The position numbers were made by a program, and so were the translations under genes. DNA of 64,000 nt from Deltaproteobacteria bacterium (GTDB lineage Bacteria; Myxococcota_A; UBA9042; DTJE01): NCBI GenBank assembly GCA_029555025.1, contig JAKPTZ010000121.1, positions 7,425 to 71,424 of the forward strand, in the 5' to 3' direction. This document shows, piece after piece, positions 4,554-37,671 of this stretch (its first letter is position 1; each line of letters starts with the position of its first letter). The notes beneath the pieces are model-generated. The model did no database searches and was not told the DNA's origin. It saw nothing but the letters and a program-made list of their open reading frames with translations.

Positions 4554-4674
4554 AGTGTTTCTCCAACTTGACTCCAACACAAAATAACGCGCCGCGTCAC
4601 AATGTCAAGGCCACGGAATGACAAAAATTTCCACGCATTCCGGCGGAGCCGCCGGGCCGCGTCAAATCAATGGA

Positions 4675-6711
4675 TCACGGGTTGCCGAAGCTGGTGTTGA
4701 CGTAGTTCGGCGTTACCGGCTTTGTCGTGTTCACGATGAACTCGGCAGTCTTGTCCAGGCCGACAGTCTTGCATTTCAGGTCGCCCACGTACCACATGTC
4801 GTGGGACGACAGGCGTCGCGTCGAAGTGTAAAGAAGTTGCCCCTTCGCATACACCTGGATCGTGACGTCGGCCTGTCCATAGCCGTGGTCGTCGAAGTAG
4901 TGGGCCCCGACCTTGAACGGCCGTCCGGCCGGGCAGTCCAGGCCCATCATCAGGACTTCCGGTTCGGTTCCGTCGTCGCTGTCGTTTCGCAGGACGACCC
5001 GGTCGTTGATCCAGGGGCTGGCCTCGCCCCAAAGGTACTTTTCGGGTTCCGCGTTGAACCAGAAACAGTCGTAGGGAAGGTCAAACCAGTCGTCGGGCAG
5101 GCCGTCCTTGTCGATGTCGGGCTCGCTTCCGTCATCGCCGGCCTTGAAGTGGGTGAAATGAAGATCCACGTCCTGGCCCATGAAGGGTGGCACGGGCGTG
5201 AACGGGTTGACCGGCTTCCAGGAAAGAAGGATGTCGGCCTTCACCTCGACCCTGGTCGTGATCCTTATCGATTTGCCGGCACAGGCCTCGTATCCCTTGT
5301 TGTCGATTACGTTAAGGAAAATTTCGTAGTAAGGGTTCTCGCCGGCGCCGAGGTCCGGCGCGGCCCCGATCATGAAGGTCGGCTCGACTTCGTTTTCGGT
5401 CGGAATGAAGAAGCCCGTGTTCGCGGCCGGCTGGGTCGCGGACCATTGCCACTGCGTGACATCCCCGAACGGCGAGAACGACTGCGCGCCGGACAGTTGG
5501 ACAAGGGTTCCGGTCGGGACTTCCCAGCCCATTTCAGTCTTGCAGATCCTGGTGTTTTTGTCGTCGGCCGGATAGTCCGGCTGAACCGGACATCCGTCGC
5601 CGTCCATCCTGTATTCGTTGATGAAATCGACGATCGGCATGGTGCACGCGCCTTCGACGGCGACACCGGTGACGCGCTGGAAAATCTTTCCGGTGAACAT
5701 GTCCCCGGAAATCTCGATCTGTCCCGACTCCGGCTGCGGCCTGCCGATGGCGTTGACCGGGCTGGCCCTGGACGGGTCATATACGATGTTGACATCCATC
5801 GTCTTTGTCTGCGCCAGCGTGACCGGATTCTGGATGGTCGGCTGCCTGTCGGGGAACTCGACGCGGAAACCGGCCGCCAGCGCCGCGGCATCGGGGGAAA
5901 CGCCATAGACGTTCACGTCCATGCGGCCGACGGATTTGAGCGTAACCTTTCTTGTTACAGGGGTTCCAAGGACCGCCGCGCCGAAATCAATGGATTCCGG
6001 AGTGACTTCCAGGGCCGGCCTTGTCTTGTTTCCCATGGCGTGGAACAGCAGGCCGTCCGGGTAATCGGTATCGGAAGAAAATGCCCGGATTTCAGTGTAA
6101 ACCTCGACGGCCTGGTCAGGCTTGAAAACAACCTTCCCGTCAAATGTGGCGCCGACCTTCAGCACTTTCGGCGGGGAAATTTCGTATATCGTCTTTCCAC
6201 CTGAAACCTGGCCCTCGGCGCCGACGTCAAGCACGATTGCCGCCGGCCCGACCGTCGTGAACCGATCCAGGCGGAGCGGGCCGTCGCCAACGTTCGTAAC
6301 CTTGAACGGGACGAACGATTCCCCGGCAAGCGGAACGAAGCCGAAATCAATCAGGTATGGGGCCACCGAGATGCGCCCCCTTGGCTCGGAAGTCTCCTGG
6401 CCCTGGTCGGCCGGGTTCGTGTCCTGTCCGCCCTGGTCGCCCGGGTTGTCGTCGCCGGGGTTGCCGTTATCGACCGGGCCGATGTCGTGTCCGCCCTGGT
6501 CGGGATTCCCTTCGTCGGGATCGCCGATATCAGTCGTGGCATCTGGTTCGGCAAGATCCGGACGGCTGTCCGGTTCAGCCCCGTCCTCGATCTGACCGTT
6601 GTCCGGCTGGCTTGTGTCGATATGAACCACAAGATCGTCTTCCGGAACGGTCGACGTACACGCCGTAACCAGTGCGATGACGGCAACTGCCGTGAAATAC
6701 TGCATTTTCAT
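4675..6711 (-). CDS. Secreted lipoprotein, hypothetical, with an acidic D/N/G/P low-complexity linker
   Basis: MKMQYFTAVAVIALVTAC lipobox signal. Repeated 'DNGNPGDDNPGDQGG' segment, followed by beta-rich domains. Confidence 0.6.
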   Translation of the reverse strand: MKMQYFTAVAVIALVTACTSTVPEDDLVVHIDTSQPDNGQIEDGAEPDSRPDLAEPDATTDIGDPDEGNPDQGGHDIGPVDNGNPGDDNPGDQGGQDTNPADQGQETSEPRGRISVAPYLIDFGFVPLAGESFVPFKVTNVGDGPLRLDRFTTVGPAAIVLDVGAEGQVSGGKTIYEISPPKVLKVGATFDGKVVFKPDQAVEVYTEIRAFSSDTDYPDGLLFHAMGNKTRPALEVTPESIDFGAAVLGTPVTRKVTLKSVGRMDVNVYGVSPDAAALAAGFRVEFPDRQPTIQNPVTLAQTKTMDVNIVYDPSRASPVNAIGRPQPESGQIEISGDMFTGKIFQRVTGVAVEGACTMPIVDFINEYRMDGDGCPVQPDYPADDKNTRICKTEMGWEVPTGTLVQLSGAQSFSPFGDVTQWQWSATQPAANTGFFIPTENEVEPTFMIGAAPDLGAGENPYYEIFLNVIDNKGYEACAGKSIRITTRVEVKADILLSWKPVNPFTPVPPFMGQDVDLHFTHFKAGDDGSEPDIDKDGLPDDWFDLPYDCFWFNAEPEKYLWGEASPWINDRVVLRNDSDDGTEPEVLMMGLDCPAGRPFKVGAHYFDDHGYGQADVTIQVYAKGQLLYTSTRRLSSHDMWYVGDLKCKTVGLDKTAEFIVNTTKPVTPNYVNTSFGNP

Positions 6712-6909
6712 GAGCTTGGTATCCCCTTCGAACCCATGTGCCGTCAAAAGCCATCCGACCGACGAATCTTAACGGATTACGGTCGATTGCGAAACATCGT
6801 TATTCTACCCCGACCTGGGAATCGGATTGTACTTCGACTTGGGAACCGGCCCAAACGCTGCTATTTTATAAGGCCGTGGCTCATTCCTTCTCGGGGCGGG
6901 GAAACGACG

Positions 6910-7620
6910 ATGGTTTTCAAGACGGTTGCGGTCGTGGTCGGGGCCGGCATGGGGCGCAGGGTCGGCACGCGTCGGCCGAAGCAGTTCGAGGAAGTTTCCG
7001 GGCGACCCCTGATCACCTACACGCTCGACATTTTTGACAGGATGGCCGAGATAGACGGCATCATCGTGGTCGTCCCGGCCGACTGGGTCGATTTCACGCG
7101 GGCGATGGTCACCCGCTGCCAGTACTCAAGGATTATCGACGTGATACCGGGTGGCGCCTCACGCCAGATGTCGTCGTTTTCGGGAGTCATCCTTGCCCGG
7201 CGTTTCGGCGGTCCCCACCTGAAGAAGATTGTCGTGCACGACGCGGTAAGGCCGCTTGCGTCAGTCGAACTGGTCCAGAAGGTCCTGAAGGCCGCTGATC
7301 GAACCGGGGCGGCCACAGCCGCGGCCCGGGTAACCGACACGATATTTTCCATCTCGGGCGATACCGTTACCGGCGTCGTTGATCGTTCATCCCTTGTGGC
7401 CGTCCAGACACCCCAGGCGTTTGACCCCGAGCTTCTTGTCCAGGCGCATCGGAACGCGCTTACTGCGGGAATCACCGACGCTTCCGACGACGTTGGCCTG
7501 GTGCTTCGTGACGGCGGCAGCGCAGTGGTGGTCGAATCCGATACCGGAAACCTGAAAATCACTTACGGCAGCGACATGCGTCTGCTGGAAAGGCTGCTGG
7601 AGACCGTGAAAGATGAGTGA
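6910..7620 (+). CDS. ispD: 2-C-methyl-D-erythritol 4-phosphate cytidylyltransferase
   Basis: 'VAVVVGAGMGRR...' N-terminus and full-length IspD similarity. The ATG at 6910 is in frame with the longer ORF at 6487. Confidence 0.8.
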   Translation: MVFKTVAVVVGAGMGRRVGTRRPKQFEEVSGRPLITYTLDIFDRMAEIDGIIVVVPADWVDFTRAMVTRCQYSRIIDVIPGGASRQMSSFSGVILARRFGGPHLKKIVVHDAVRPLASVELVQKVLKAADRTGAATAAARVTDTIFSISGDTVTGVVDRSSLVAVQTPQAFDPELLVQAHRNALTAGITDASDDVGLVLRDGGSAVVVESDTGNLKITYGSDMRLLERLLETVKDE

Positions 7621-8560
7621 GTCCTTTATTGGCATAGATCTGGGCGCGACAAGGATCAAGGCCGGACTCGTCCGGGATGAAAGGATTCTTGGAACCGTGG
7701 TGGTCAACCTGGATCCTGCCGACAGGAGCCAGTCCGGGGTAGTTGCCAGGCTGGCAGGCGTGGTCAGGGAACTGGGGGATCGGTTTCTGGAACCCGGCCA
7801 GGCGGTCGCCGGAATCGGGATCGGTTCGCCCGGAGCCATACGTCATGCGGAAGGCATCATCGTCCGCGCCCCGAATTTTGAGCAGTGGAACGATTTCGAA
7901 CTTGGGCGGATGCTCGGGGAGGCCACCGGGCTTCCAGCGAAGTTGGACAACGACGCAAACGTCATCACGCTTGGCGAGGCCGTTTACGGGGCCGGCCGTG
8001 GATATCGGCACTTCCTCTGCCTGACGCTGGGAAGCGGACTTGGCGGCGGCCTGTTCCTGGACGGACGGATTTACCGTGGCGCCGACGGCATGGCCGGTGA
8101 ACTTGGACATATCGGCGTCGAGCCCGAGGGATTCGAGTGCAACTGCGGCAGCCGCGGCTGCGTCGAGCAGTACATCGCCGCGGTCGGCCTTCGCAACTAC
8201 GTAAGGCGGGATCGCCTTTTCGGCGACGGCACCGAAGCGGCACTTGCCGACCCCGACCTGCCGCGACGTCTTTACGAAATGGCGAAGGCCGGTCATCCGG
8301 TTGCCGGCCGGTACTTCCACGACATCGGCTACTACTTCGCCATGGCAATCGGAACCTATCTGAACCTGCTGAACGTGGAAGCCATCGTGATCGGTGGCGG
8401 GATGGCCAGGTCATGGGACGCGTTCGGTCCGACGCTGATGTCCGAACTTCATCGGCGTGCGTATCCGGTGCTGGTCGAGCGGACGCGAATCATCATGTGC
8501 GAGCTTTGGGAAGACGCCGGCATACTTGGAGCGGCGGCTCTTGCCGGAGGGCGATCCTGA
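7613..8560 (+). CDS. ROK-family sugar kinase (glucokinase-like)
   Basis: N-terminal 'IGIDLGATRIKAGL' and the ROK zinc motif 'CNCGSRGCVEQY'. Its start overlaps the ispD stop by 8 nt. Confidence 0.8.
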   Translation: MSESFIGIDLGATRIKAGLVRDERILGTVVVNLDPADRSQSGVVARLAGVVRELGDRFLEPGQAVAGIGIGSPGAIRHAEGIIVRAPNFEQWNDFELGRMLGEATGLPAKLDNDANVITLGEAVYGAGRGYRHFLCLTLGSGLGGGLFLDGRIYRGADGMAGELGHIGVEPEGFECNCGSRGCVEQYIAAVGLRNYVRRDRLFGDGTEAALADPDLPRRLYEMAKAGHPVAGRYFHDIGYYFAMAIGTYLNLLNVEAIVIGGGMARSWDAFGPTLMSELHRRAYPVLVERTRIIMCELWEDAGILGAAALAGGRS

Positions 8561-28763: not shown

Positions 28764-30017
28764 ATGCCGATGGGCCGGCGGTCAAACAACAGGGGCGTGG
28801 CGCTGATAGTCGTTCTGACCGGCATCACCATCCTTGCCGCGTTTTCATCGGAGTTCACATACCGCTCGAGGGTTGACATCAGGACGGCGATGAACCAGCA
28901 GAGGCGGGTTCAGGCTTATTTTCACGCGAGATCCGGGATGGAGATAGGCAGACTGGTAATCACTTCGCAGAAGATGGTTGATCAGGCCCTTTCCAGTTTC
29001 GGCCTTTCAGGAAGGGCTGCCGGTCTGGAGTTGTGGCGGTTCGCGCCCAAGTTCGTCGATGTCTTCACGTCATCGTCGCTTGAGTTTCTTGGTTTCAAGC
29101 TGATGGATCTTTCCGGAGTGCGGGGAATCGGCGTCGGGGCCGGCGGCTTTGAACTGGAGATTGTGCCCGAGGATTCCCGCATCAACGTCAACTCGGGAAG
29201 TTCGGACAAGGACAAGCGGGAGATTTTCTCCAAGCTTTACCCGATCCTGGCGGGCCAGATCGACGAGGAGCCGATGACTGGAATGGACAGGAAGGCCGCC
29301 GAGGTTATCCTGAACATTATCGACTGGGCGGATCCCGACGATTCCAGGTCCGACATCGATTCGAACGGCAACCTGCTTTCAACGGTAGGCGGCAGCGAGA
29401 ACATGAACTATTCGAAATGGGGTTACACGTCCCGTAACGCCAGGATGGATTCGCTGGATGAACTGCTGATGATTGAAGGCGTGACGGACAGCATATTCTG
29501 TCGTTTCAGCCGCATGCTGACGGTCTATAACACTTCGAAGATCAACGTGAACGACGCCGATCCCTGGCTGATCAAGGCAGTCGTGTGCGACAACCTGGTC
29601 ACCGACAAGCTGGCGGTCTGCGGGTACAACTACATGTCGCCTGGATCGGTCATGGATCAGGCCATGTACCTGTTCGAGACGTGCAGGCAGATAAAGCAGC
29701 AGTTGAACATGCCCCCGTTCATGTCGGCTTCGCAGTTCGTCAATTTCTGGACGAGGTTGCCGGAGCCCCTGAACCAGCTTGTGGTTGTCAATCCTGAAAC
29801 GTTGAGGGCGTCGGCCGGTACGAAGAGCACCGTTCTCAGGGTGGTGTCGCGAGGGTGGGTCGATGAGTCCGGGCACGAGATGTCTGCCGTCATCGATACC
29901 GGATCGACCAGATGGCTTTCGTGGAAGGAGCGCGGGTTCGATGCCTCGGGAAAACGCGACATGGGGCAGGTCGATGGCGTCGATTCCGCCGGAGAGGCGG
30001 GAACGGAAGGAAGATAA
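28764..30017 (+). CDS. gspK: Minor pseudopilin GspK
   Basis: 'RGVALIVVLTGITILAA' N-terminus typical of GspK, and size (417 aa). Confidence 0.65.
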   Translation: MPMGRRSNNRGVALIVVLTGITILAAFSSEFTYRSRVDIRTAMNQQRRVQAYFHARSGMEIGRLVITSQKMVDQALSSFGLSGRAAGLELWRFAPKFVDVFTSSSLEFLGFKLMDLSGVRGIGVGAGGFELEIVPEDSRINVNSGSSDKDKREIFSKLYPILAGQIDEEPMTGMDRKAAEVILNIIDWADPDDSRSDIDSNGNLLSTVGGSENMNYSKWGYTSRNARMDSLDELLMIEGVTDSIFCRFSRMLTVYNTSKINVNDADPWLIKAVVCDNLVTDKLAVCGYNYMSPGSVMDQAMYLFETCRQIKQQLNMPPFMSASQFVNFWTRLPEPLNQLVVVNPETLRASAGTKSTVLRVVSRGWVDESGHEMSAVIDTGSTRWLSWKERGFDASGKRDMGQVDGVDSAGEAGTEGR

Positions 30018-30019
30018 GC

Positions 30020-31729
30020 ATGGGTCACAGAGTAATCGGTCTGACAAGGTCGGGAACGATTCTTAGGGCGGCCGTCGTGGAGACGAGGCTTCGCAGGTTC
30101 GAGTTGAGAACCGTGCTGGAGATCGATCTGGCGCAGCCGGGCGACGAAGTTGACGAAGCTGGCGCGGTCGATGCCTCCGACGGGCTTCTCACCGTGGGCG
30201 AGGCTCTGAATCGCGCCCTGGTGCCGCCGCTGAGTCCGTCTGATTCGGTTGTCGTCGCCTATCCCGGCGATGCCGGCTTCATAAGGAGGCTGTCCTTTCC
30301 TTTCAGGGACAGGGCCAGGATTTCGGAAGTCCTGCCGGTCGAATTGGGCGGCACGCTTCCCACAGGTCTTGATACCGAGCTTCATGTCAATTTCGAGCGG
30401 GCGGGCAAGGACGGAAACGACATTATCGCGGTTGGCGTCCAGGCACAGGCGTTCGCTTCGTGGCTTGACGGCTGGCGCTTTCAGGGAATCGATCCGAAAC
30501 ATGTTGCCATGGAATCGCTCGAGCTTGCGGCATACCTTCCATTTATCGCGAACGGCGAACCCGCCAACCGGATGATTGTGTCCGTCGATGGGAACCTGGT
30601 CGAGTTCATGGTCGCCAGTGGCGATTCCGTAAGGCTGTGTCGCGCGATAAGGCTTCAGGGCGGAATCGTCAGCGGCGGCGATCTCAGCGGCGCGTTCATG
30701 CGGGAAGTTCTCCTGTGCGTTGCCGCCGCGTCCGAGGCCGGAACGCCGCTTGACAGCGTTTTTGCGTGCGGCGATCACGCGGACGTTGTTGCCCGTGTTC
30801 TTTCGGAGTCGATCGGAATCCAGTGCGACAAACTTGATCCATTGGCGCTGGGAATCCCCGGGGCCGCAGATTGCGATTGTTCCGGAACGGCCATGTCGCG
30901 CACCGTCGCGCTTGCAATCGGGGTCGCTGACGGAAGCGGGCCGGCCGCTTTGAACCTGCGAACCGGTCAGTTCGGCTCGGGTGGGGCCGCCGGGCTGCTT
31001 CGCGAGAAGGCCATGTTCTTTTCCGTGGCGCTGGGGGTGTTCCTGCTGCTGGGGGCCGGATGGACGGCAACCAGGTACATCGGCCTGGTGGGCGACAGGG
31101 CTGCCATTGAGAAGCAACTTGTGGTGCTGTCGTCAACCATTCTGGAACGGCAGGTGGATGATTTCGAGGGGGCGCTTGCCGAGGTTCGTGCCGGCTCGCG
31201 CGAGGAACTGGCCCTGTTTCCCGCCTGGACCGGTGCGGGGACCCTTGAGAAGATAACCAGGGCCGTGCTTGCTGCCGGTCCTGCCGGCGTTCATTCCGTA
31301 CCAGCCCAGGGGACCGGCTCCCAGGATGACGGTTCCGTTGAGGACACTGCCGGAAGCGGGGGCGAGTCGGTCGAGGAAGATTCCGCGGAGGTTGATCCCG
31401 GCCACTCGATGGAGCTTGAGCAGATAGAGATCGGGCCGAAGCAGGCCATGATCAAGGGTGAGGCTGAGTCCATCGAGAAGGTTGACGAGTTGATAGCACG
31501 CCTTCGGGGCGATGCATGCTTTCACGAGATCGTCACGGAAAGCACCGAGCGTGTTCAGTTCCAGCGTCATCAGGGCTGGCAGAAGTTCCGCGTCAGGATG
31601 AACGTTGACTGCGTAGGAAAGGATGCCCGCAAGGGGGCTCCGGCGACCGGGGCGGCTGCGACACCGGGGGCCGCGCCTGCGTCCCCGCCTGTACAGGCCG
31701 ATTCTGCGGCCCAGGTCGATGGCGAGTGA
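30020..31729 (+). CDS. gspL: GspL-like protein (cytoplasmic actin-like domain, TM, periplasmic domain)
   Basis: Position after gspK, PilM/GspL-like N-domain and central TM (FFSVALGVFLLLGAGW). ATG at 30020 after GGAAGGAAG. Confidence 0.6.
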   Translation: MGHRVIGLTRSGTILRAAVVETRLRRFELRTVLEIDLAQPGDEVDEAGAVDASDGLLTVGEALNRALVPPLSPSDSVVVAYPGDAGFIRRLSFPFRDRARISEVLPVELGGTLPTGLDTELHVNFERAGKDGNDIIAVGVQAQAFASWLDGWRFQGIDPKHVAMESLELAAYLPFIANGEPANRMIVSVDGNLVEFMVASGDSVRLCRAIRLQGGIVSGGDLSGAFMREVLLCVAAASEAGTPLDSVFACGDHADVVARVLSESIGIQCDKLDPLALGIPGAADCDCSGTAMSRTVALAIGVADGSGPAALNLRTGQFGSGGAAGLLREKAMFFSVALGVFLLLGAGWTATRYIGLVGDRAAIEKQLVVLSSTILERQVDDFEGALAEVRAGSREELALFPAWTGAGTLEKITRAVLAAGPAGVHSVPAQGTGSQDDGSVEDTAGSGGESVEEDSAEVDPGHSMELEQIEIGPKQAMIKGEAESIEKVDELIARLRGDACFHEIVTESTERVQFQRHQGWQKFRVRMNVDCVGKDARKGAPATGAAATPGAAPASPPVQADSAAQVDGE

Positions 31730-31766
31730 TGTCTGGTCTGCCGGAGATTCCGGCTGGAGGACGTGA

Positions 31767-32417
31767 ATGAAGATTTCGGAGTCGTTTGATGCCATGACCG
31801 GTCGTCTTTCCGAGAGGGAGAGACGGCTTTTCGGCCTGCTGGCCCTGGCCGCCCTGCTTCTTCTGGTCGGCGGGGCGTGGTTCGGCGTTTCGACCGTTTT
31901 TTCCGGGATACGGGAAGACATCGAGGGAGATCGCAAGGTTCTTGCCGAGCTTCGAAACATGGCTCCGCAGTATCTCGAGAAGCAGGCCAGGAAAAGGGAT
32001 CTGGAAGCGGCGGTCAAGAACAATACGGAGTCGGTCAGGGTGATGGCGAATGAAATCCTGAAGGACATTGAACTGTCCGCGGAGATTCCCGGCGCCCTTG
32101 GAACCAGGATGTCGGACATCGTCAGCTTTGAAGGCAAGACCGTCGAGACTCCGGTTGAGTTGACGAAGTCGAAGAAGGCAGCCAAGTCAAAGAAGAAGGT
32201 GACTTCCTCGTATGTGATGGAAGAGCAGGAATTGAAGTTCAAGGAAGTTCCGCAGAACGATCTGATGAGGTTCCTGGATGCAATAGAGAAGTCCGAGGCC
32301 CTGCTTTTCGTGACGAAGATTGACATGAAAAGGACTTTTAACGACAGGAACCGCGTCACCGCGTCGGTGGTAATCGCGACCTTCAGGTATCGCGAAGCCG
32401 CCGGTCGGGACGAGTGA
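31767..32417 (+). CDS. gspM: GspM-like protein
   Basis: Single N-terminal TM, ~216 aa, positioned after gspL. Confidence 0.55.
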   Translation: MKISESFDAMTGRLSERERRLFGLLALAALLLLVGGAWFGVSTVFSGIREDIEGDRKVLAELRNMAPQYLEKQARKRDLEAAVKNNTESVRVMANEILKDIELSAEIPGALGTRMSDIVSFEGKTVETPVELTKSKKAAKSKKKVTSSYVMEEQELKFKEVPQNDLMRFLDAIEKSEALLFVTKIDMKRTFNDRNRVTASVVIATFRYREAAGRDE

Positions 32418-33916
32418 CTGGTTTCATACCGGAGATTCCCATGGCGATGGAATGGACAAAGAACCCAGGCGTAATCAAGGGCCTGAAGATTGGCGGCGTG
32501 GCCGTTTTCGCGCTGGTTTCGTTCGTAATTTCGATCGGGTACACGCTTCCCGAGGAGCGCATCAAGTCCCTGATCGAGGCAAAGGCGGCTGATGCCGGAA
32601 TCGTTCTGTCAATTGCGGATTTTGACGCTTCCGGCTTTGGCGGGGTGACGATTGAGGGAATCCGGGCCGAACTGTCGCCACTGGTGTCCGAAGCGGCCGA
32701 TGGAACCAGGCTGGAGCAGCCCAGGAAGCTTGAGATAGACCGGATGGATCTTGATGTAAGCCTCTTTTCACTGCTGCTTGGAAAACCGTCCTTCAAGCTG
32801 ACAGTGCTTGATGAAGGTGGTCACGTCGGGCCTGCGCGCATCAAGGTGCTGGCCGACTCCATCGATGTGGAAATCGAGGAGATTGTCGATTTTCCCATTC
32901 CAAGGGGATTTCCGGCAGGCCCGTTTCCACTGTCGGGGGTCATTCGATCGGGCAAGGGACGGATCCAGTGGGATCGCGCGGGCGGCATTGCCGGAAGCGA
33001 GGGTGCCTTTGAGCTGAAGGCCGAAAAGGTGACGGCGCTGAAGCCTGTGCTCAACACGAAGCAGGCAGGCGCAATCGGCCTGACCGACATTGCCCTGGGC
33101 ACCTTCGAGGCGTCGCTGATCATCGACAAGAGGTCGAATATCGCCGCATTGAAGTCATCCAAGGGGCGATCGCAGACGGGTGGCGAAGGTCGGGTCATCT
33201 ATTTCGAGACGTTGAAGGTTGACGGTAAGGACATCAAGGCCATGGTCGAGGGGAATTCCCTGATCAGGCTGGCCTCCGGGCGTCCTCTTTCGAAAGCGCA
33301 GTTGACGCTGGAAATGGCTTTCGCGATCGAGGAAGCCTTCTTTTCCAAGACAAACAAGGACTCGACCGATACCCCGAACAAGTTCCTCAAGACGCTGCTT
33401 GATCTCGATCCGCGATGGAAGAGCGCCAAGTCCGGGGAATTCTACGGCCTGATGTGCACCGGCACTCTCGACAGGCCGAACTGCCTGCCGCGAAGGCCTT
33501 CCGTGCGCGGCGGGGACTTCAAGGCCCCATCGAAGTCGGCCGAAGATGACGAGGAGAAGCCGGTTCGCCAGAAGGCTTCGCGCCGCAAGCCGGTGACCAC
33601 GCGACAGCGGCCGGCTGCGACCGATGAATCCGCGGGGGCAGCCGGCGGCCAGACCGGGAACGATGCACCGGCCGAACCGGTTCAGGCGCCGGAACCTGCG
33701 GCGCCGACGGAACAGCAGCCCGCGGTTGAGTTCACGCCGCCGCCGGACGGCCCGACGGCCAGGAGGCCGGGGCCGCCGGACACCGATGTCGATGTGACCG
33801 CGCGGGTTGGCGGAACCGCCTTCATTGACCGGAGCGAGAGTATCCGGACGCAGGGCGAGATGAGGGCCAGGCCGCGAATCCGGCTGCAGGAACCTGGCGA
33901 GCCTAGCGAGGAGTAG
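32414..33916 (+). CDS. gspN: GspN-like protein with a Pro/Ala/Arg-rich disordered C-terminus
   Basis: N-terminal TM and position after gspM. Start overlaps the gspM stop. Confidence 0.5.
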   Translation: MTGFIPEIPMAMEWTKNPGVIKGLKIGGVAVFALVSFVISIGYTLPEERIKSLIEAKAADAGIVLSIADFDASGFGGVTIEGIRAELSPLVSEAADGTRLEQPRKLEIDRMDLDVSLFSLLLGKPSFKLTVLDEGGHVGPARIKVLADSIDVEIEEIVDFPIPRGFPAGPFPLSGVIRSGKGRIQWDRAGGIAGSEGAFELKAEKVTALKPVLNTKQAGAIGLTDIALGTFEASLIIDKRSNIAALKSSKGRSQTGGEGRVIYFETLKVDGKDIKAMVEGNSLIRLASGRPLSKAQLTLEMAFAIEEAFFSKTNKDSTDTPNKFLKTLLDLDPRWKSAKSGEFYGLMCTGTLDRPNCLPRRPSVRGGDFKAPSKSAEDDEEKPVRQKASRRKPVTTRQRPAATDESAGAAGGQTGNDAPAEPVQAPEPAAPTEQQPAVEFTPPPDGPTARRPGPPDTDVDVTARVGGTAFIDRSESIRTQGEMRARPRIRLQEPGEPSEE

Positions 33917-35003
33917 CCGGTGGAAAGATCGAATCCGGTACGTAGGGAACAAGGCCATCCCTGGTCCTGCAAAGGAGTGCCGGGCCCGCATCGAGAGTCC
34001 TGACCCAGTAAAGATCGTTCTTCAACACGTTGAAGCGCCCGCTCGGTTCCGGCCAGTCGCGTCCAAGAGCGATAAGTGCCATCAGCCACGGAAAATTGAA
34101 CCCGGCGGCAGTGTAGAAATGGTTTGTTGTCCCGAACCGGCCGGCGTTGATCTCAGTGGGCCGCGGATTTCCATCGGCATCGCACTTGAAATCGACGAAG
34201 GCCACGCCGTCGAATCCGGGGTCGATGGAAAGGACGCATCGCGGGCCAAGCTCGTTGATGTCGTCCCTGCTGATTGTGTGGCAGATGGCCGGAGCCCCGG
34301 TTATTCCGCTTGGACTGACGTGAGGGATCACGTATGCGTCACGCTGTCGTCCCTGACTTGCAACAAGGGTGCCGCGATCAAAGATCCCCAGCCAGGTCAG
34401 GTTGTCTCCCGGAAGAAATTCTGAAGCGATGAATCCGCCCCAGCCTGAATAGAACTGTATCCAGCCGGTCGCTTCCGCGACCGACCTGCACGGGAGTGCC
34501 GCACCCCCGATTCCGCGTCCCGGAATACCGGCGCCTCGAAACCAGATTGGAACGCCTGGGAGGATGCGAAAGGCCGTCTCGACATCGTCCGCGTCGTTAA
34601 TCAGCATCGTTGCCGGAACCGGTATGTCGTCGTCGCGCCATCGCGACCAGGTAAGCCATTTCGATGCCGAAGTCTCCTGAGCCTGCAGCGACGGAACCTT
34701 CATCCTCGCCGGAATCGCGTCCGAATTCCTGGTCAGGGCCATCATTTCCACGCTGGAATTCGGTATCACAAGGTCAATCGAGTGCTTCCGGCACAGTGCG
34801 GAGATTGTCTCGATGTAGGCATCACCGTCGTCGCACCTTGGAACCAGCGCCTTTTCATGTGTCAGTGCCAGGTGGATGTAATAGGGGCTTGCGTCGGTGC
34901 CGAGCAGGAAGACAGGATCGGGTGCCATCAGGAGGCTTCGCGTAAGGTTGACGGTTCCCGGTCCGCCGGCCCCGGTCACCAGGATTCTGGTCGCATCTTT
35001 CAT
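33903..35003 (-). CDS. ATP-grasp domain ligase (PylC/carbamoyl-phosphate-synthase-like fold)
   Basis: 'ILVTGAGGPG' N-terminus and an ATP-grasp C-lobe ('PRPTEINAGRFGTT'), 366 aa. Its start is 6 nt after the preceding small gene's stop. Confidence 0.7.
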   Translation of the reverse strand: MKDATRILVTGAGGPGTVNLTRSLLMAPDPVFLLGTDASPYYIHLALTHEKALVPRCDDGDAYIETISALCRKHSIDLVIPNSSVEMMALTRNSDAIPARMKVPSLQAQETSASKWLTWSRWRDDDIPVPATMLINDADDVETAFRILPGVPIWFRGAGIPGRGIGGAALPCRSVAEATGWIQFYSGWGGFIASEFLPGDNLTWLGIFDRGTLVASQGRQRDAYVIPHVSPSGITGAPAICHTISRDDINELGPRCVLSIDPGFDGVAFVDFKCDADGNPRPTEINAGRFGTTNHFYTAAGFNFPWLMALIALGRDWPEPSGRFNVLKNDLYWVRTLDAGPALLCRTRDGLVPYVPDSIFPPATPR

Positions 35004-35008
35004 TTTTC

Positions 35009-35224
35009 CTACTCAAGTTCAAAGTGTTTGCAGAAGACGTATGTACCCCTGGGTGTCTCGAACGATTCGGCCTGCTGCAGTTCGGTGTTTGGGTATTCAA
35101 GGCCGCAGCGGCCCGTTGTCGGAACGATGTGGACGCAGCGGTCGCACTTCCAGGCCAGTTTGAAGGCCAGGCAGTCGTCCTTGAATCGATCCCTTTCCTG
35201 GCCCGTTGGATAAACCGGTTTCAC
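35009..35224 (-). CDS. Small Cys-containing protein or peptide (71 aa) translationally coupled to the ATP-grasp ligase
   Basis: Strong GC3 codon bias. GTG start overlaps the upstream stop as GTGA. Sequence VKPVYPTGQ...CLAFKLAWKCDRCVHIVPTTGRCGLEYPNTELQQAESFETPRGTYVFCKHFELE. The longer ORF to 35323 would overlap the upstream gene by 100 nt. Confidence 0.5.
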   Translation of the reverse strand: MKPVYPTGQERDRFKDDCLAFKLAWKCDRCVHIVPTTGRCGLEYPNTELQQAESFETPRGTYVFCKHFELE

Positions 35225-35934
35225 TGCACAGTTTTCCCGACCGCCTGGTCGGCCTCCATTGCGATGATTTCCTGGATGGCGGCTGCCTGGCGGTTGTCCG
35301 CGTGTCTGTTCGTCGCCGCGCAAAGGTTTTCATTACGGATCCCGACCCTCATCGATGCAAGACATCCGGCCGCCGCCACTTCGGCCGGCATGCCGTCGGT
35401 CGGCGTTACAAGCGCCAGTGCGGAATCGGGCGAGCTTGCAGAAAGAAGCACGATATACGCCGCGAGCGCGGGGCCTTCTCCGGAGTCGGCCGCCGACGCA
35501 AGCCAGGACAGCGCCAGTTCAATGTCACCGACCATGCAGGCTGAAGATGAGGCCGCAAGCGCGATCGGCAGTGGCATGCCAAATTCCTCGAGGGCGGGAA
35601 CCGCGTCGGGGGGAGCCTTGAAAACGCGCCGATCGAGAACCGCGTTCACGGAATCGTAGTCGCAGCGTTTCGTGCCGAACGAGGCGGCAAGTTCCTGCCT
35701 GACTTTGTTCCACGCCAGGCGAAATGCCTCTGTCGCCCGCCTGTCGGCGTTGCGAAGAAAGAGCCTCGCAGCCGTGGAATATGCAGAGCCGCCCAGCCAG
35801 GGCTCGAGATCGTGTCGAGAAGGCCGGGCGATGGCACGGCATTCCACTGGGGGCTGCGATGGTGCTATATTCGTTGCACCGAGCCCGATGGCCGGAAACA
35901 CGATCAGCAATGTGATTAAGGGTATTCTTCCCAT
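35221..35934 (-). CDS. Hypothetical protein with an N-terminal signal-like segment; first gene of the three-gene operon
   Basis: Coding-like codon usage and N-terminus MGRIPLITLLIVFPAIGLGA. Mostly helical, Ala-rich, with no recognisable domain. Confidence 0.45.
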   Translation of the reverse strand: MGRIPLITLLIVFPAIGLGATNIAPSQPPVECRAIARPSRHDLEPWLGGSAYSTAARLFLRNADRRATEAFRLAWNKVRQELAASFGTKRCDYDSVNAVLDRRVFKAPPDAVPALEEFGMPLPIALAASSSACMVGDIELALSWLASAADSGEGPALAAYIVLLSASSPDSALALVTPTDGMPAEVAAAGCLASMRVGIRNENLCAATNRHADNRQAAAIQEIIAMEADQAVGKTVQ

Positions 35935-36736
35935 GCCGCGAGCGATTATAACCCAAATGGTCCTGGCGTGGCTGCTGGGCATTGTGATCGCGGTTCCGTT
36001 GGAGGCGGCGGAACCAGAATCGTCCTGGCCGGCCGATGGGAGCTTCGTCCGGATTACACGCGAAGGCGGGGTTACCCCCTATATTTCGGTCTATTATGAC
36101 GTGACCGTGCGCGGTCGCACCCTGGTCGTGACGATGACCAAGGACACGCTGTGCCGGGTGATGACGCATGAGCGCGTCGTCATCCTTGACGGTTCGGATG
36201 CAAGGCGCGTCCTCGGGATCCTTTCTGATGCCGGGGCCTGGATAATGCGGCCGCCGGTGCGTGACCGGGGCACGGTCGAAACGGCGCCGGGATCGCCTGA
36301 CGACGATGCCGCATATGAATTCTGGAGCGCTTCCGGCCGCGACATGAGAAGGTTTCGAGCGACCAGGCGGGAACTTCTGGGCGACCCCGGGCTGACAAGG
36401 CTTCTTTCCGTGGTTCGCGCGACCGTTACCGGTCTTGTGGAGCCGCTGGCCCTGCGGGATGTCTTCCAGCCCGCCGATCGCACCGGGATTCTGGCAATAA
36501 CGGCGTCCGAGCCTGCCGTCGCGCTGATTGATGGGTGGGATCGGGTCAGGCTTCCGGTCAGCTCGCTTGACCTGAAGGTCGGAGTGCATGAAGTGGTGGT
36601 GACCGGAAAGAGCGGATCCAGGAGGAATTTCACCGTCCGCGTCGTGCCTGGGGAAAACCCCGCGATACACGTCCTGCTTGGGGATCCGCCCCCGCCTGGA
36701 GTTACCGCGGAACCTTCGGTCAGCCCCGTCCCCTGA
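35933..36736 (+). CDS. Hypothetical secreted protein
   Basis: Signal peptide MPRAIITQMVLAWLLGIVIAVPLEAAEP and good GC3 bias. Its start codon overlaps the divergent gene's start (CATG). Confidence 0.5.
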   Translation: MPRAIITQMVLAWLLGIVIAVPLEAAEPESSWPADGSFVRITREGGVTPYISVYYDVTVRGRTLVVTMTKDTLCRVMTHERVVILDGSDARRVLGILSDAGAWIMRPPVRDRGTVETAPGSPDDDAAYEFWSASGRDMRRFRATRRELLGDPGLTRLLSVVRATVTGLVEPLALRDVFQPADRTGILAITASEPAVALIDGWDRVRLPVSSLDLKVGVHEVVVTGKSGSRRNFTVRVVPGENPAIHVLLGDPPPPGVTAEPSVSPVP

Positions 36737-36846: not shown

Positions 36847-37671
36847 TTGACTTCGCTGCTTGTCGCACTGACCATCGCCTCCACGGTGATGACCATCCCG
36901 GACAACCCCTGCCCTTCCGGGTGGAAGTACATGCTGGCCGAGGTCAGGGCCGGTGAACGCGATCCCACGGATATTGCCCGCCGCCTGATGGTGAAGCCCG
37001 ACATGCTGGCCGACTGGAACAGGATGTCGGTCAGGGAAAGGCTTCAAAAGGGACAGTTGCTTGTGTTCTGCAAGGATCTGCGACCGGCCTCCGTGGGAAG
37101 TCCATCCCGCGGCCGCCTGAGGGCCGGCGTGAATATGGACGCGGACGGCGACAGTCGTGGCTGCGGCTGGGTCAAGTCACCGCTGCGAACCACCACGTGG
37201 GGCACGCCCGAGACCGTTGCCGCCGTTTCGGATTGTCTTTGTCGTTTCAAAACACGTTTTCCCGGAGCGCCGGACGTGACGCTGGGGGATCTTTCGCGGC
37301 AGGGCGGTGGAAGACTCGGGCGCCACCTGTCACATCGCAGCGGCCGGGACGTCGATCTTGGCTATATCACTAATCCGCCGCAGTCCGGAGGCTATTTCAA
37401 CCGCAACGCCAGGTACGGTAACCTGGACGCGGAAAAGCAGTGGTGGATCGTCAAATGTTTCCTGGATCGGGGCAATGTCAGGTTCATCTTCCTGAACTGG
37501 CCGGCCCTGTCCGCGCTGAAGTCGTTTGTTAAGTCCCGTCCGGAGCTTTCTTCTTACATGAGGTTTTTTTCCGGCGGATCGTCGCCCGTGATTTCGGCGG
37601 ACAGAGAACATCGAAATCATCTTCACGTAAGGTTTGACTGCCCGCCCGACGACATCGAATGCATCGAATGA
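36847..37671 (+). CDS. LysM-domain LAS-family peptidase (MepA/peptidase M74-like murein endopeptidase)
   Basis: LysM-like block (YMLAEVRAGERDPTDIARRL...GQLLVF). Zinc-ligand motifs 'HLSHRSGRDVDL' and 'HRNHLHVRF'. The ORF opens with TTG, so the true start is uncertain. Confidence 0.6.
   Translation: MTSLLVALTIASTVMTIPDNPCPSGWKYMLAEVRAGERDPTDIARRLMVKPDMLADWNRMSVRERLQKGQLLVFCKDLRPASVGSPSRGRLRAGVNMDADGDSRGCGWVKSPLRTTTWGTPETVAAVSDCLCRFKTRFPGAPDVTLGDLSRQGGGRLGRHLSHRSGRDVDLGYITNPPQSGGYFNRNARYGNLDAEKQWWIVKCFLDRGNVRFIFLNWPALSALKSFVKSRPELSSYMRFFSGGSSPVISADREHRNHLHVRFDCPPDDIECIE

Follow-up and report, generated by a model that had tools for sequence, protein, structure and literature searches.

In the reaction of ATP-grasp enzymes, a carboxylate is activated by conversion to an acyl-phosphate and is then passed to an amine. 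PurD and the L-amino-acid ligases couple the carboxylate of an amino acid to a small-molecule amine, the amine used by PurD being a phosphorylated aminosugar, and no member of either family is known to pair with a Cys4 mini-protein. In a Ter-linked module discussed by Anantharaman, Iyer and Aravind in 2012, ATP-grasp enzymes and HAD phosphatases are said to be joined so as to make a small metabolite. Two other systems place a small open reading frame (ORF) beside an ATP-grasp gene, namely LysW/LysX, in which the small gene encodes a Cys protein, and the graspetide clusters. MyxF, an ATP-grasp enzyme of a Myxococcota-derived cluster, is a ligase of the MvdC/MvdD type and installs K-x-x-E lactams (PMC12848669). 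The subject of the present study is a three-gene locus in a 64,000-nucleotide (nt) stretch of contig JAKPTZ010000121.1 from a Deltaproteobacteria bacterium (hereafter the window, meaning the whole stretch that was analyzed), in which the gene for a 71-amino-acid (aa) protein with four conserved cysteines lies between those for an exported protein and an ATP-grasp ligase. An original prediction, made from the letters of the window, had proposed that the small ORF and the ligase may represent either a graspetide, i.e. a peptide that is made by ribosomes and modified after translation (RiPP), or a LysW-type carrier system.

The three genes form an operon that is conserved in Myxococcota and is lineage-specific. 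Its ligase is an uncharacterized new family inside the known ATP-grasp superfamily, and its small protein is neither a RiPP precursor nor a LysW-type carrier. The reading that we tentatively prefer has a small molecule as the substrate of the ligase and the Cys4 protein as an accessory partner. The features of the locus are as follows.

35221..35934, minus strand: gene 1, encoding a 237-aa exported TPR-like protein (start set from the ORF list and the orthologue alignment; stop codon TGA at 35221-35223)
35009..35224, minus strand: gene 2, encoding a 71-aa cytoplasmic Cys4 protein (GTG start codon at 35224-35222; family search, AlphaFold2 (AF2) model and ratio of non-synonymous to synonymous substitution rates (dN/dS))
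33903..35003, minus strand: gene 3, encoding a 366-aa ATP-grasp carboxylate-amine ligase, PRK12767/2pn1-like (AF2 model, Foldseek, conserved residues)
35221..35224, minus strand: GTGA junction at which the stop codon of gene 1 overlaps the start codon of gene 2 (read from the sequence)
35004..35008, minus strand: 5-nt gap that separates the stop codon of gene 2 (TAG) from the ligase start codon (ATG) (likewise read from the sequence)
35933..36736, plus strand: divergent gene whose 267-aa exported product carries a PEGA domain at its C-terminus (synteny and Pfam)

All three ORFs, for the signal-peptide protein, the 71-aa protein and the ligase, are closely packed on the minus strand, in agreement with the original prediction, which had not given the strand. 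The peptide that it quoted matches the translation of gene 2, and the placement of the GTG start of this ORF inside the upstream stop was also correct, with GTG at 35224-35222 and TGA at 35223-35221; the gap before the ligase, put at 6 nt, is in fact 5 nt. A GTGA overlap of genes 1 and 2 would be a typical arrangement for translational coupling, and ahead of the ligase a Shine-Dalgarno-like AGGA, within GAGTAGGAAAAATG, overlaps the stop codon of gene 2. Two start sites were settled by comparison with orthologues. As listed, the ORF of gene 1 spans 35221..35982 (253 aa), and this version was dropped in favor of 237 aa because the orthologues align from the ATG at 35934. A 104-aa version of the small ORF, started at TTG (35009..35323), was dropped in favor of the 71-aa version because every orthologue begins at the MKP/VKP position.

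A total of 74 ligase loci were collected, in which the small gene was sought with a hidden Markov model (HMM) of the small protein. It is present in 47 of the 74, and 44 of these also have a gene 1 homologue immediately upstream of it. Close relatives share the whole neighborhood, with type II secretion system (T2SS)-like genes on one side and the PEGA gene and Peptidase_M74 on the other side, and distant loci keep only the triad, often together with the divergent PEGA gene. Fourteen related loci show the same 4-nt overlap ([A/G/T]TGA) where gene 1 meets the small gene. The small gene is linked more tightly to gene 1 than to the ligase gene. In five loci (L023, L025, L043, L046 and L068), an opposite-strand gene of about 440 aa separates it from the ligase gene. 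The product of this intervening gene carries a C-terminal antitoxin-type domain, Xre_MbcA_ParS_C (for example, at 4555-5874 on the minus strand of L068), and a weaker homologue of the same gene comes after the small gene in L080.

The 71-aa ORF is genuine and encodes a folded protein, given its orthologues in the same position, its low dN/dS and its confident structure prediction. Forty-three distinct orthologues occupy the same position. The dN/dS of the small gene was 0.14-0.19 against four orthologues, with synonymous sites saturated, and selection on the gene is purifying (dN/dS about 0.15). With the 71-aa sequence as query, a word-indexed search returned only 3 close homologues, and exhaustive HMMER and profile searches were needed to recover the whole family. 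Against 1.84 billion representatives, exhaustive HMMER yielded at least 112 clusters at 50% identity (E <= 0.001), in all but two of which the proteins are 55-105 aa long, and all named source records are Myxococcota or Deltaproteobacteria metagenome-assembled genomes (MAGs). The conservation of individual residues was taken from two alignments, one with 54 diverse members and the other with 58. Neither has any substitution of C27, C30, C65, K66 or E69; C40 is likewise invariant in the smaller alignment and conserved at >=90% in the larger; P45, F64 and F68 reach >=90% in both, and Y44 does so in one. The protein is conserved over its full length, and its four conserved cysteines fit the metal-ligand criterion of zinc-ribbon/Cys4 mini-proteins; it is a putative metal-binding protein, probably for zinc. 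After E69 come 1 to 12 variable residues, which do not form an acidic tail. The C-terminal Glu to which the original prediction had pointed is there in the window protein, but family members differ in their last residue (E, I, G, A, L, S, T, D, Y and others).

An AF2 model of the small protein, built with the 58 sequences, is compact, with a mean predicted local distance difference test score (pLDDT) of 87. In it, short strands come after an N-terminal helix at residues 8-20, and the confidence falls only over the last ~10 residues. No Pfam or NCBIfam model matches the small protein, and it has no significant sequence or fold match among the PDB chains searched, LysW not being among the matches listed. 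Matches to Zn_ribbon families of Pfam within the small-protein family were scattered, well short of significance and found in one member each.

The small proteins constitute a previously undescribed family of stand-alone small proteins, wider than the operon of this clade. Eight distant homologues could be placed on contigs, and seven of them have neither a ligase nor gene 1 beside them. Four of these seven stand beside genes for FHA, cNMP-binding and RsmE proteins, and two are followed by RidA. L080 keeps gene 1 and the small gene, with no ligase within 5 kb. The stand-alone members retain all six invariant residues, K66 and E69 included, as seen in L075-L079 and L081-L083, which have neither the ligase nor the TPR-like gene. 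These paralogues (at 5001-5243 in L075-L078, L081 and L083; also L079 and L082) recur in two settings: in one, the small gene is divergent from an FHA/cNMP-binding/RsmE block, followed twice by a gene for a FYDLN_acid zinc ribbon; in the other, it lies immediately upstream of a RidA (Ribonuc_L-PSP) gene. Such recurrence hints that the role of the family is broader and of a housekeeping type. The neighborhood of small gene and ATP-grasp gene that underlay the original prediction holds in one ligase clade, usually within 42 nt, but there are also small proteins without a ligase and ligases without a small protein.

The homologues of the ligase number more than 800, and all the organism names given by the sources are Myxococcota or Deltaproteobacteria MAGs. 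In Pfam, it comes close to PylC-like_N (26.7 bits versus a cut-off of 27, for the N-terminal domain only) and faintly matches ATPgrasp_Ter (PF15632; 14.9 bits versus 29.1); its best NCBIfam match is the PRK12767 "CPS-like" model (69.9 bits versus 218). When 37 ligase homologues were scanned, all 37 matched PRK12767 models of NCBIfam, always below the cut-offs, 24 matched PylC-like_N, 16 matched ATPgrasp_Ter and six weakly matched rimK_fam; no graspetide/microviridin maturase, LysX or PylC model was among the Pfam and NCBIfam families that they matched. A search of the PDB with the single ligase sequence found nothing, and a profile was needed, for which the best sequence match was 2pn1 (E = 7.5e-5). 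The AF2 model of the ligase (pLDDT 91) has a three-domain ATP-grasp fold. Foldseek with this model gave 626 PDB matches at E <= 0.001, the top 50 of which are all ATP-grasp enzymes; the best are 2pn1, PurD (GAR synthetase), RizA, BL00235, YwfE, PurK, biotin carboxylases and Ddl. Other than 2pn1, to which no function is assigned, the top structural matches are small-molecule enzymes, and MdnC-type enzymes are absent from both the PDB profile matches and the Foldseek top 50. K115, D271, E284, N286 and R289, the last three within an E-x-N-x-x-R motif, are invariant in the 37 homologues and are also conserved at >=90% in both of the ligase clades described below. Together they would supply the central-domain Lys, the acidic residue and the C-domain motif that ATP-grasp enzymes conserve for ATP and Mg2+. 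By motif recognition, the invariant residues would correspond to catalytic positions of biotin carboxylase and PurD, and because of their invariance the ligase looks catalytically intact.

The closest relative by fold, 2pn1, is a structural-genomics protein from Exiguobacterium belonging to PRK12767 ("carbamoyl phosphate synthase-like"), and it was matched at E = 1.1e-17 with template modeling (TM) scores of 0.68/0.80. The two have in common the three-domain ATP-grasp architecture and an E-I-N-x-R-F-G motif; they differ in that they are only 18% identical and that, by sequence, only the N-terminal ~140 residues align. Membership of PRK12767 was rejected by the curated criterion, on the score given above, although this is still the closest group. 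Function cannot be transferred from 2pn1, since 2pn1 has no known function. The next-best fold matches, PurD, RizA, BL00235 and YwfE/BacD (E = 1e-16 to 1e-17, TM about 0.6-0.68), are 14-19% identical to the ligase, and the locus has no purine-pathway or dipeptide-antibiotic gene context.

In a neighbor-joining tree, the ligases form two clades, one of which almost always occurs with the TPR-like and small genes and the other never. A lack of homologues of the small ORF, which the original prediction had named as counting against it, was not found; the small gene is conserved beside the ligase across the former clade. In the sister clade, a HAD hydrolase gene (PF00702) lies directly downstream of the ligase in 17 of 17 loci, and in about six (for example, L055, L056, L060 and L063-L065) HAD and ligase occupy one open (stop-to-stop) frame, which is consistent with a fusion. 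GlmS is found upstream of the sister-clade ligase in 5 loci. The sister-clade loci concerned are L042, L051-L067 and L070 (about 6000-7850 in each), where a DUF2142-like membrane protein, or GlmS, is often encoded upstream. At 82 positions, conservation of >=90% is common to the two clades, with only 3 fixed differences and only one clade-specific alignment column, and this near-identity of the conserved positions points to one conserved reaction in both. As there is essentially one ligase locus per source genome, the clades look like orthologues, with the same chemistry and different partners.

Gene 1 and the PEGA-domain gene encode the exported proteins of the locus. The N-terminus of the gene 1 product, MGRIPLITLLIVFPAIGLGA, is hydrophobic and resembles a Sec signal, a feature conserved in orthologues, for example MRNLTLLIVALVFTAAAARA. 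Among the orthologues, Cys133 is invariant and Cys32 nearly so. The 237-aa protein has no Pfam or NCBIfam match, and a profile of 21 orthologues gave weak PDB matches to TPR/PPR repeat proteins. The divergent PEGA gene is kept beside gene 1 in about 29 loci, distant ones included; the PEGA domain itself was matched in three of four sequences scanned, with two above the Pfam cut-off. From this synteny, the PEGA-domain gene is a probable associated gene of the triad. Within a CATG palindrome (35932-35935), the ATG of gene 1 (minus strand, 35934) has two bases in common with that of the PEGA gene (plus strand, 35933), and the same 2-nt head-to-head overlap is found in L004 (4073/4074) and L006 (5049/5050). 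In the window, this overlap therefore leaves no intergenic promoter space between the two genes. A scan of 33600-36400 for promoters and terminators was uninformative, as it returned no site resembling a promoter and no more terminator-like sites than chance would give.

At its other end, the operon converges with a 500-aa gene on the plus strand (32414..33916), the 3' ends of this gene and of the ligase gene overlapping by 14 nt (33903-33916). The last ~150 residues of the 500-aa protein are rich in Pro, Ala and Arg, and the local GC content reaches 70%. This gene ends a divergent T2SS-like gene set adjoining the operon (28764-33916), in which weak matches to T2SSK_1st, PilN and T2SSM precede it. 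Beyond the PEGA gene, a Peptidase_M74 gene (MepA-like murein endopeptidase) is found at 36847-37671. The T2SS-like set and the Peptidase_M74 gene are syntenic in close relatives only.

How the locus compares with the described systems can now be stated. With LysW/LysX it has in common a small Cys protein gene beside an ATP-grasp ligase gene, and in outline the small protein would resemble LysW, having a globular Cys domain followed by a short tail, here with an invariant Glu. However, its cysteines follow the pattern CxxC-x9-C-x24-C as opposed to the two CxxC knuckles of LysW. Unlike that of LysW, its tail is non-acidic and its last residue unconserved, and for the latter reason the small protein is not LysW-like. 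The ligase, by PDB profile and NCBIfam, is not LysX/RimK-like. No LysZ, LysY, LysJ or LysK gene lies nearby, the neighbors being the T2SS-like, PEGA and Peptidase_M74 genes and genes with no assigned function. On these grounds, and with LysW missing from its listed PDB matches, the LysW-type carrier of the original prediction was not borne out. The graspetide alternative fared no better. The locus resembles graspetide clusters in its small ORF followed by an ATP-grasp gene, its invariant K-x-x-E and its Myxococcota setting. Unlike these clusters, including that of MyxF, its ligase belongs to a different ATP-grasp clade and has no maturase model or fold match, its small protein is folded and conserved throughout, with a single KxxE and no leader-plus-core organization, and there are members of the small-protein family with no ligase beside them. 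Among the four proteins scanned (the triad and the PEGA protein), there was no protease, transporter or graspetide-type ligase match.

The description of the ligase as PylC-like is only weakly borne out, by a PylC-like_N match that is just below the cut-off and confined to the N-terminal domain. Identity with PylC itself was rejected: only PylC-like_N matches, the NCBIfam matches include no PylC model, and no radical-SAM or dehydrogenase genes are among the neighbors. A further likeness, to ATPgrasp_Ter, lies in the weak matches of the ligase homologues and in the pairing or fusion of the sister-clade ligases with HAD; no ter genes or phosphoribosyltransferase gene were found at about 28.7-40.3 kb of the window or in the listed called genes of the related loci. 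A known defense system was also rejected, since PADLOC gave no match for any of the same four proteins. The triad and its alternation with a ligase-HAD arrangement match no curated Pfam, NCBIfam or PADLOC model and were not found in a limited literature search.

Gene structure, conservation, folds, catalytic motifs and synteny were observed here; a substrate class for the ligase and an accessory role and metal binding for the small protein are inferred. According to the reading that we prefer, tentatively as stated at the outset, the ligase would be a small-molecule carboxylate-amine ligase that proceeds through an acyl-phosphate and most likely does not act on the neighboring protein. It would probably do the same job as its sister-lineage orthologues that are paired or fused with a HAD phosphatase. 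Its substrate may be phosphorylated, or tied to aminosugar or cell-envelope metabolism, as is proposed because of the HAD and GlmS partners of the sister clade and the PurD-like fold neighbors. The small protein, presumably co-translated with the exported TPR-like protein, would most likely be a non-covalent accessory, adaptor or regulatory partner. In favor of this reading stand the fold and invariant motifs of the ligase, the near-identical conserved residues of the two ligase clades, the retention of the invariant residues of the small protein in homologues that lack both partner genes, the looser link of the small gene to the ligase than to gene 1, and the compact fold predicted for the small protein. 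A number of observations weigh against it. In 40 of 46 loci, the small gene and the ligase lie <=42 nt apart, often with an overlap, and this packing persists though the outer neighbors change completely; it would be the pattern expected if the two products were in direct physical contact or were enzyme and substrate. Near the less confidently modeled C-terminus lies the invariant K66-x-x-E69, which matches a motif that is cyclized by some ATP-grasp enzymes (PMC12848669). That the partners are mutually exclusive (HAD, or small and TPR-like) could mean that the substrate has been swapped. Finally, a phospho-metabolite or aminosugar, which may indeed be the substrate, is suggested solely by the neighbors of the sister clade and by fold neighbors.

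Tight coupling of the small gene to the ligase keeps alive the covalent models, i.e. attachment at Glu69 or a Lys66-Glu69 lactam, which even when taken jointly are on the unlikely side. In their general form, a ligase from an otherwise small-molecule clade would covalently modify the Cys4 protein at K66-x-x-E69, with the exported TPR-like and PEGA proteins as downstream partners, and this we consider doubtful. Attachment would require the ligase to acyl-phosphorylate a carboxylate of the Cys4 protein, most plausibly the Glu69 side chain, and to attach an amine or amino acid, the protein being a carrier or a modified target. Glu69 would be well placed for this role, as it is invariant, four residues past the last Cys and in the least confident region of the model; the adjacency of the two genes, coupled or overlapping across the whole ligase clade, and the LysW-like outline of the protein would also fit. 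However, Glu69 is equally invariant in homologues without a nearby ligase, ligase orthologues with near-identical conserved residues have no adjacent small gene and pair with HAD instead, the ligase falls outside the RimK/LysX/MdnC part of the superfamily that modifies proteins, and both the C-terminal residue and the tail length of the small protein vary; attachment at this residue is rated as unlikely. In the lactam model, the ligase would join Lys66 to Glu69 (i to i+3) through their side chains, as in a graspetide but on a folded protein. Both residues are invariant in all the family members aligned, and the formation of K-x-x-E lactams by MyxF from a Myxococcota-derived cluster is documented (PMC12848669); nevertheless, the ligase matches none of the MvdC/MvdD-type models to which MyxF belongs, and no such enzyme is listed among its fold neighbors. 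The small protein also has no microviridin-type leader recognition helix motif, and since the KxxE is kept in paralogues without a nearby ligase, it may be merely structural, for example a salt bridge. A staple of this kind appears improbable.

A rather unlikely alternative, though one that accounts for the loose attachment of the ligase in some loci, is that synteny here reflects no biochemical link: the TPR-like and small genes would form one unit, for example envelope-related or regulatory, and an unrelated ligase would have become fixed downstream of it in one lineage. L080, with the TPR-like and small genes and no ligase, and the opposite-strand gene that intervenes in five loci are what this model would lead one to expect. 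Part of the conservation is, moreover, inherited gene order, as close relatives share the whole wider neighborhood, T2SS-like genes and Peptidase_M74 included. The model accounts poorly for the survival of the triad in distant loci in which all outer neighbors have changed, for gene junctions that overlap or nearly touch, and for the mutual exclusion between association of the ligase with the small and TPR-like genes and its association with HAD. Least probable is a graspetide or other RiPP cluster, in which the 71-aa product would be a leader-plus-core precursor that is cyclized, cleaved and exported. Only the order of small ORF and ATP-grasp gene and the KxxE motif speak for it; the full-length conservation of the small protein, with its four conserved cysteines and confidently predicted fold, the missing protease, transporter and graspetide-type ligase among the four proteins scanned, the lack of PADLOC matches, and the core-genome-like behavior of the region, whose synteny is conserved in the bacterial lineage, all speak against it.

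The small-protein family is sizeable and has six invariant residues, yet it has no Pfam or NCBIfam model and no PDB relative detected by sequence or fold. If it were true that the small protein is acted on by the ligase, protein modification by ATP-grasp enzymes would have arisen independently a third time, and modification at K66-x-x-E69 in particular would amount to an ATP-grasp modification or carrier system of a new kind, operating at the level of proteins and separate from the RimK/LysX and graspetide lineages. If the ligase does not act on the small protein, then the locus is a warning that a small ORF next to an ATP-grasp gene is insufficient to call a RiPP or LysW system. The tight pairing of the small protein with this uncharacterized ligase family, and the clean alternation between "TPR-like, Cys4 and ligase" and "ligase and HAD", provide a concrete handle on the role of the ligases.

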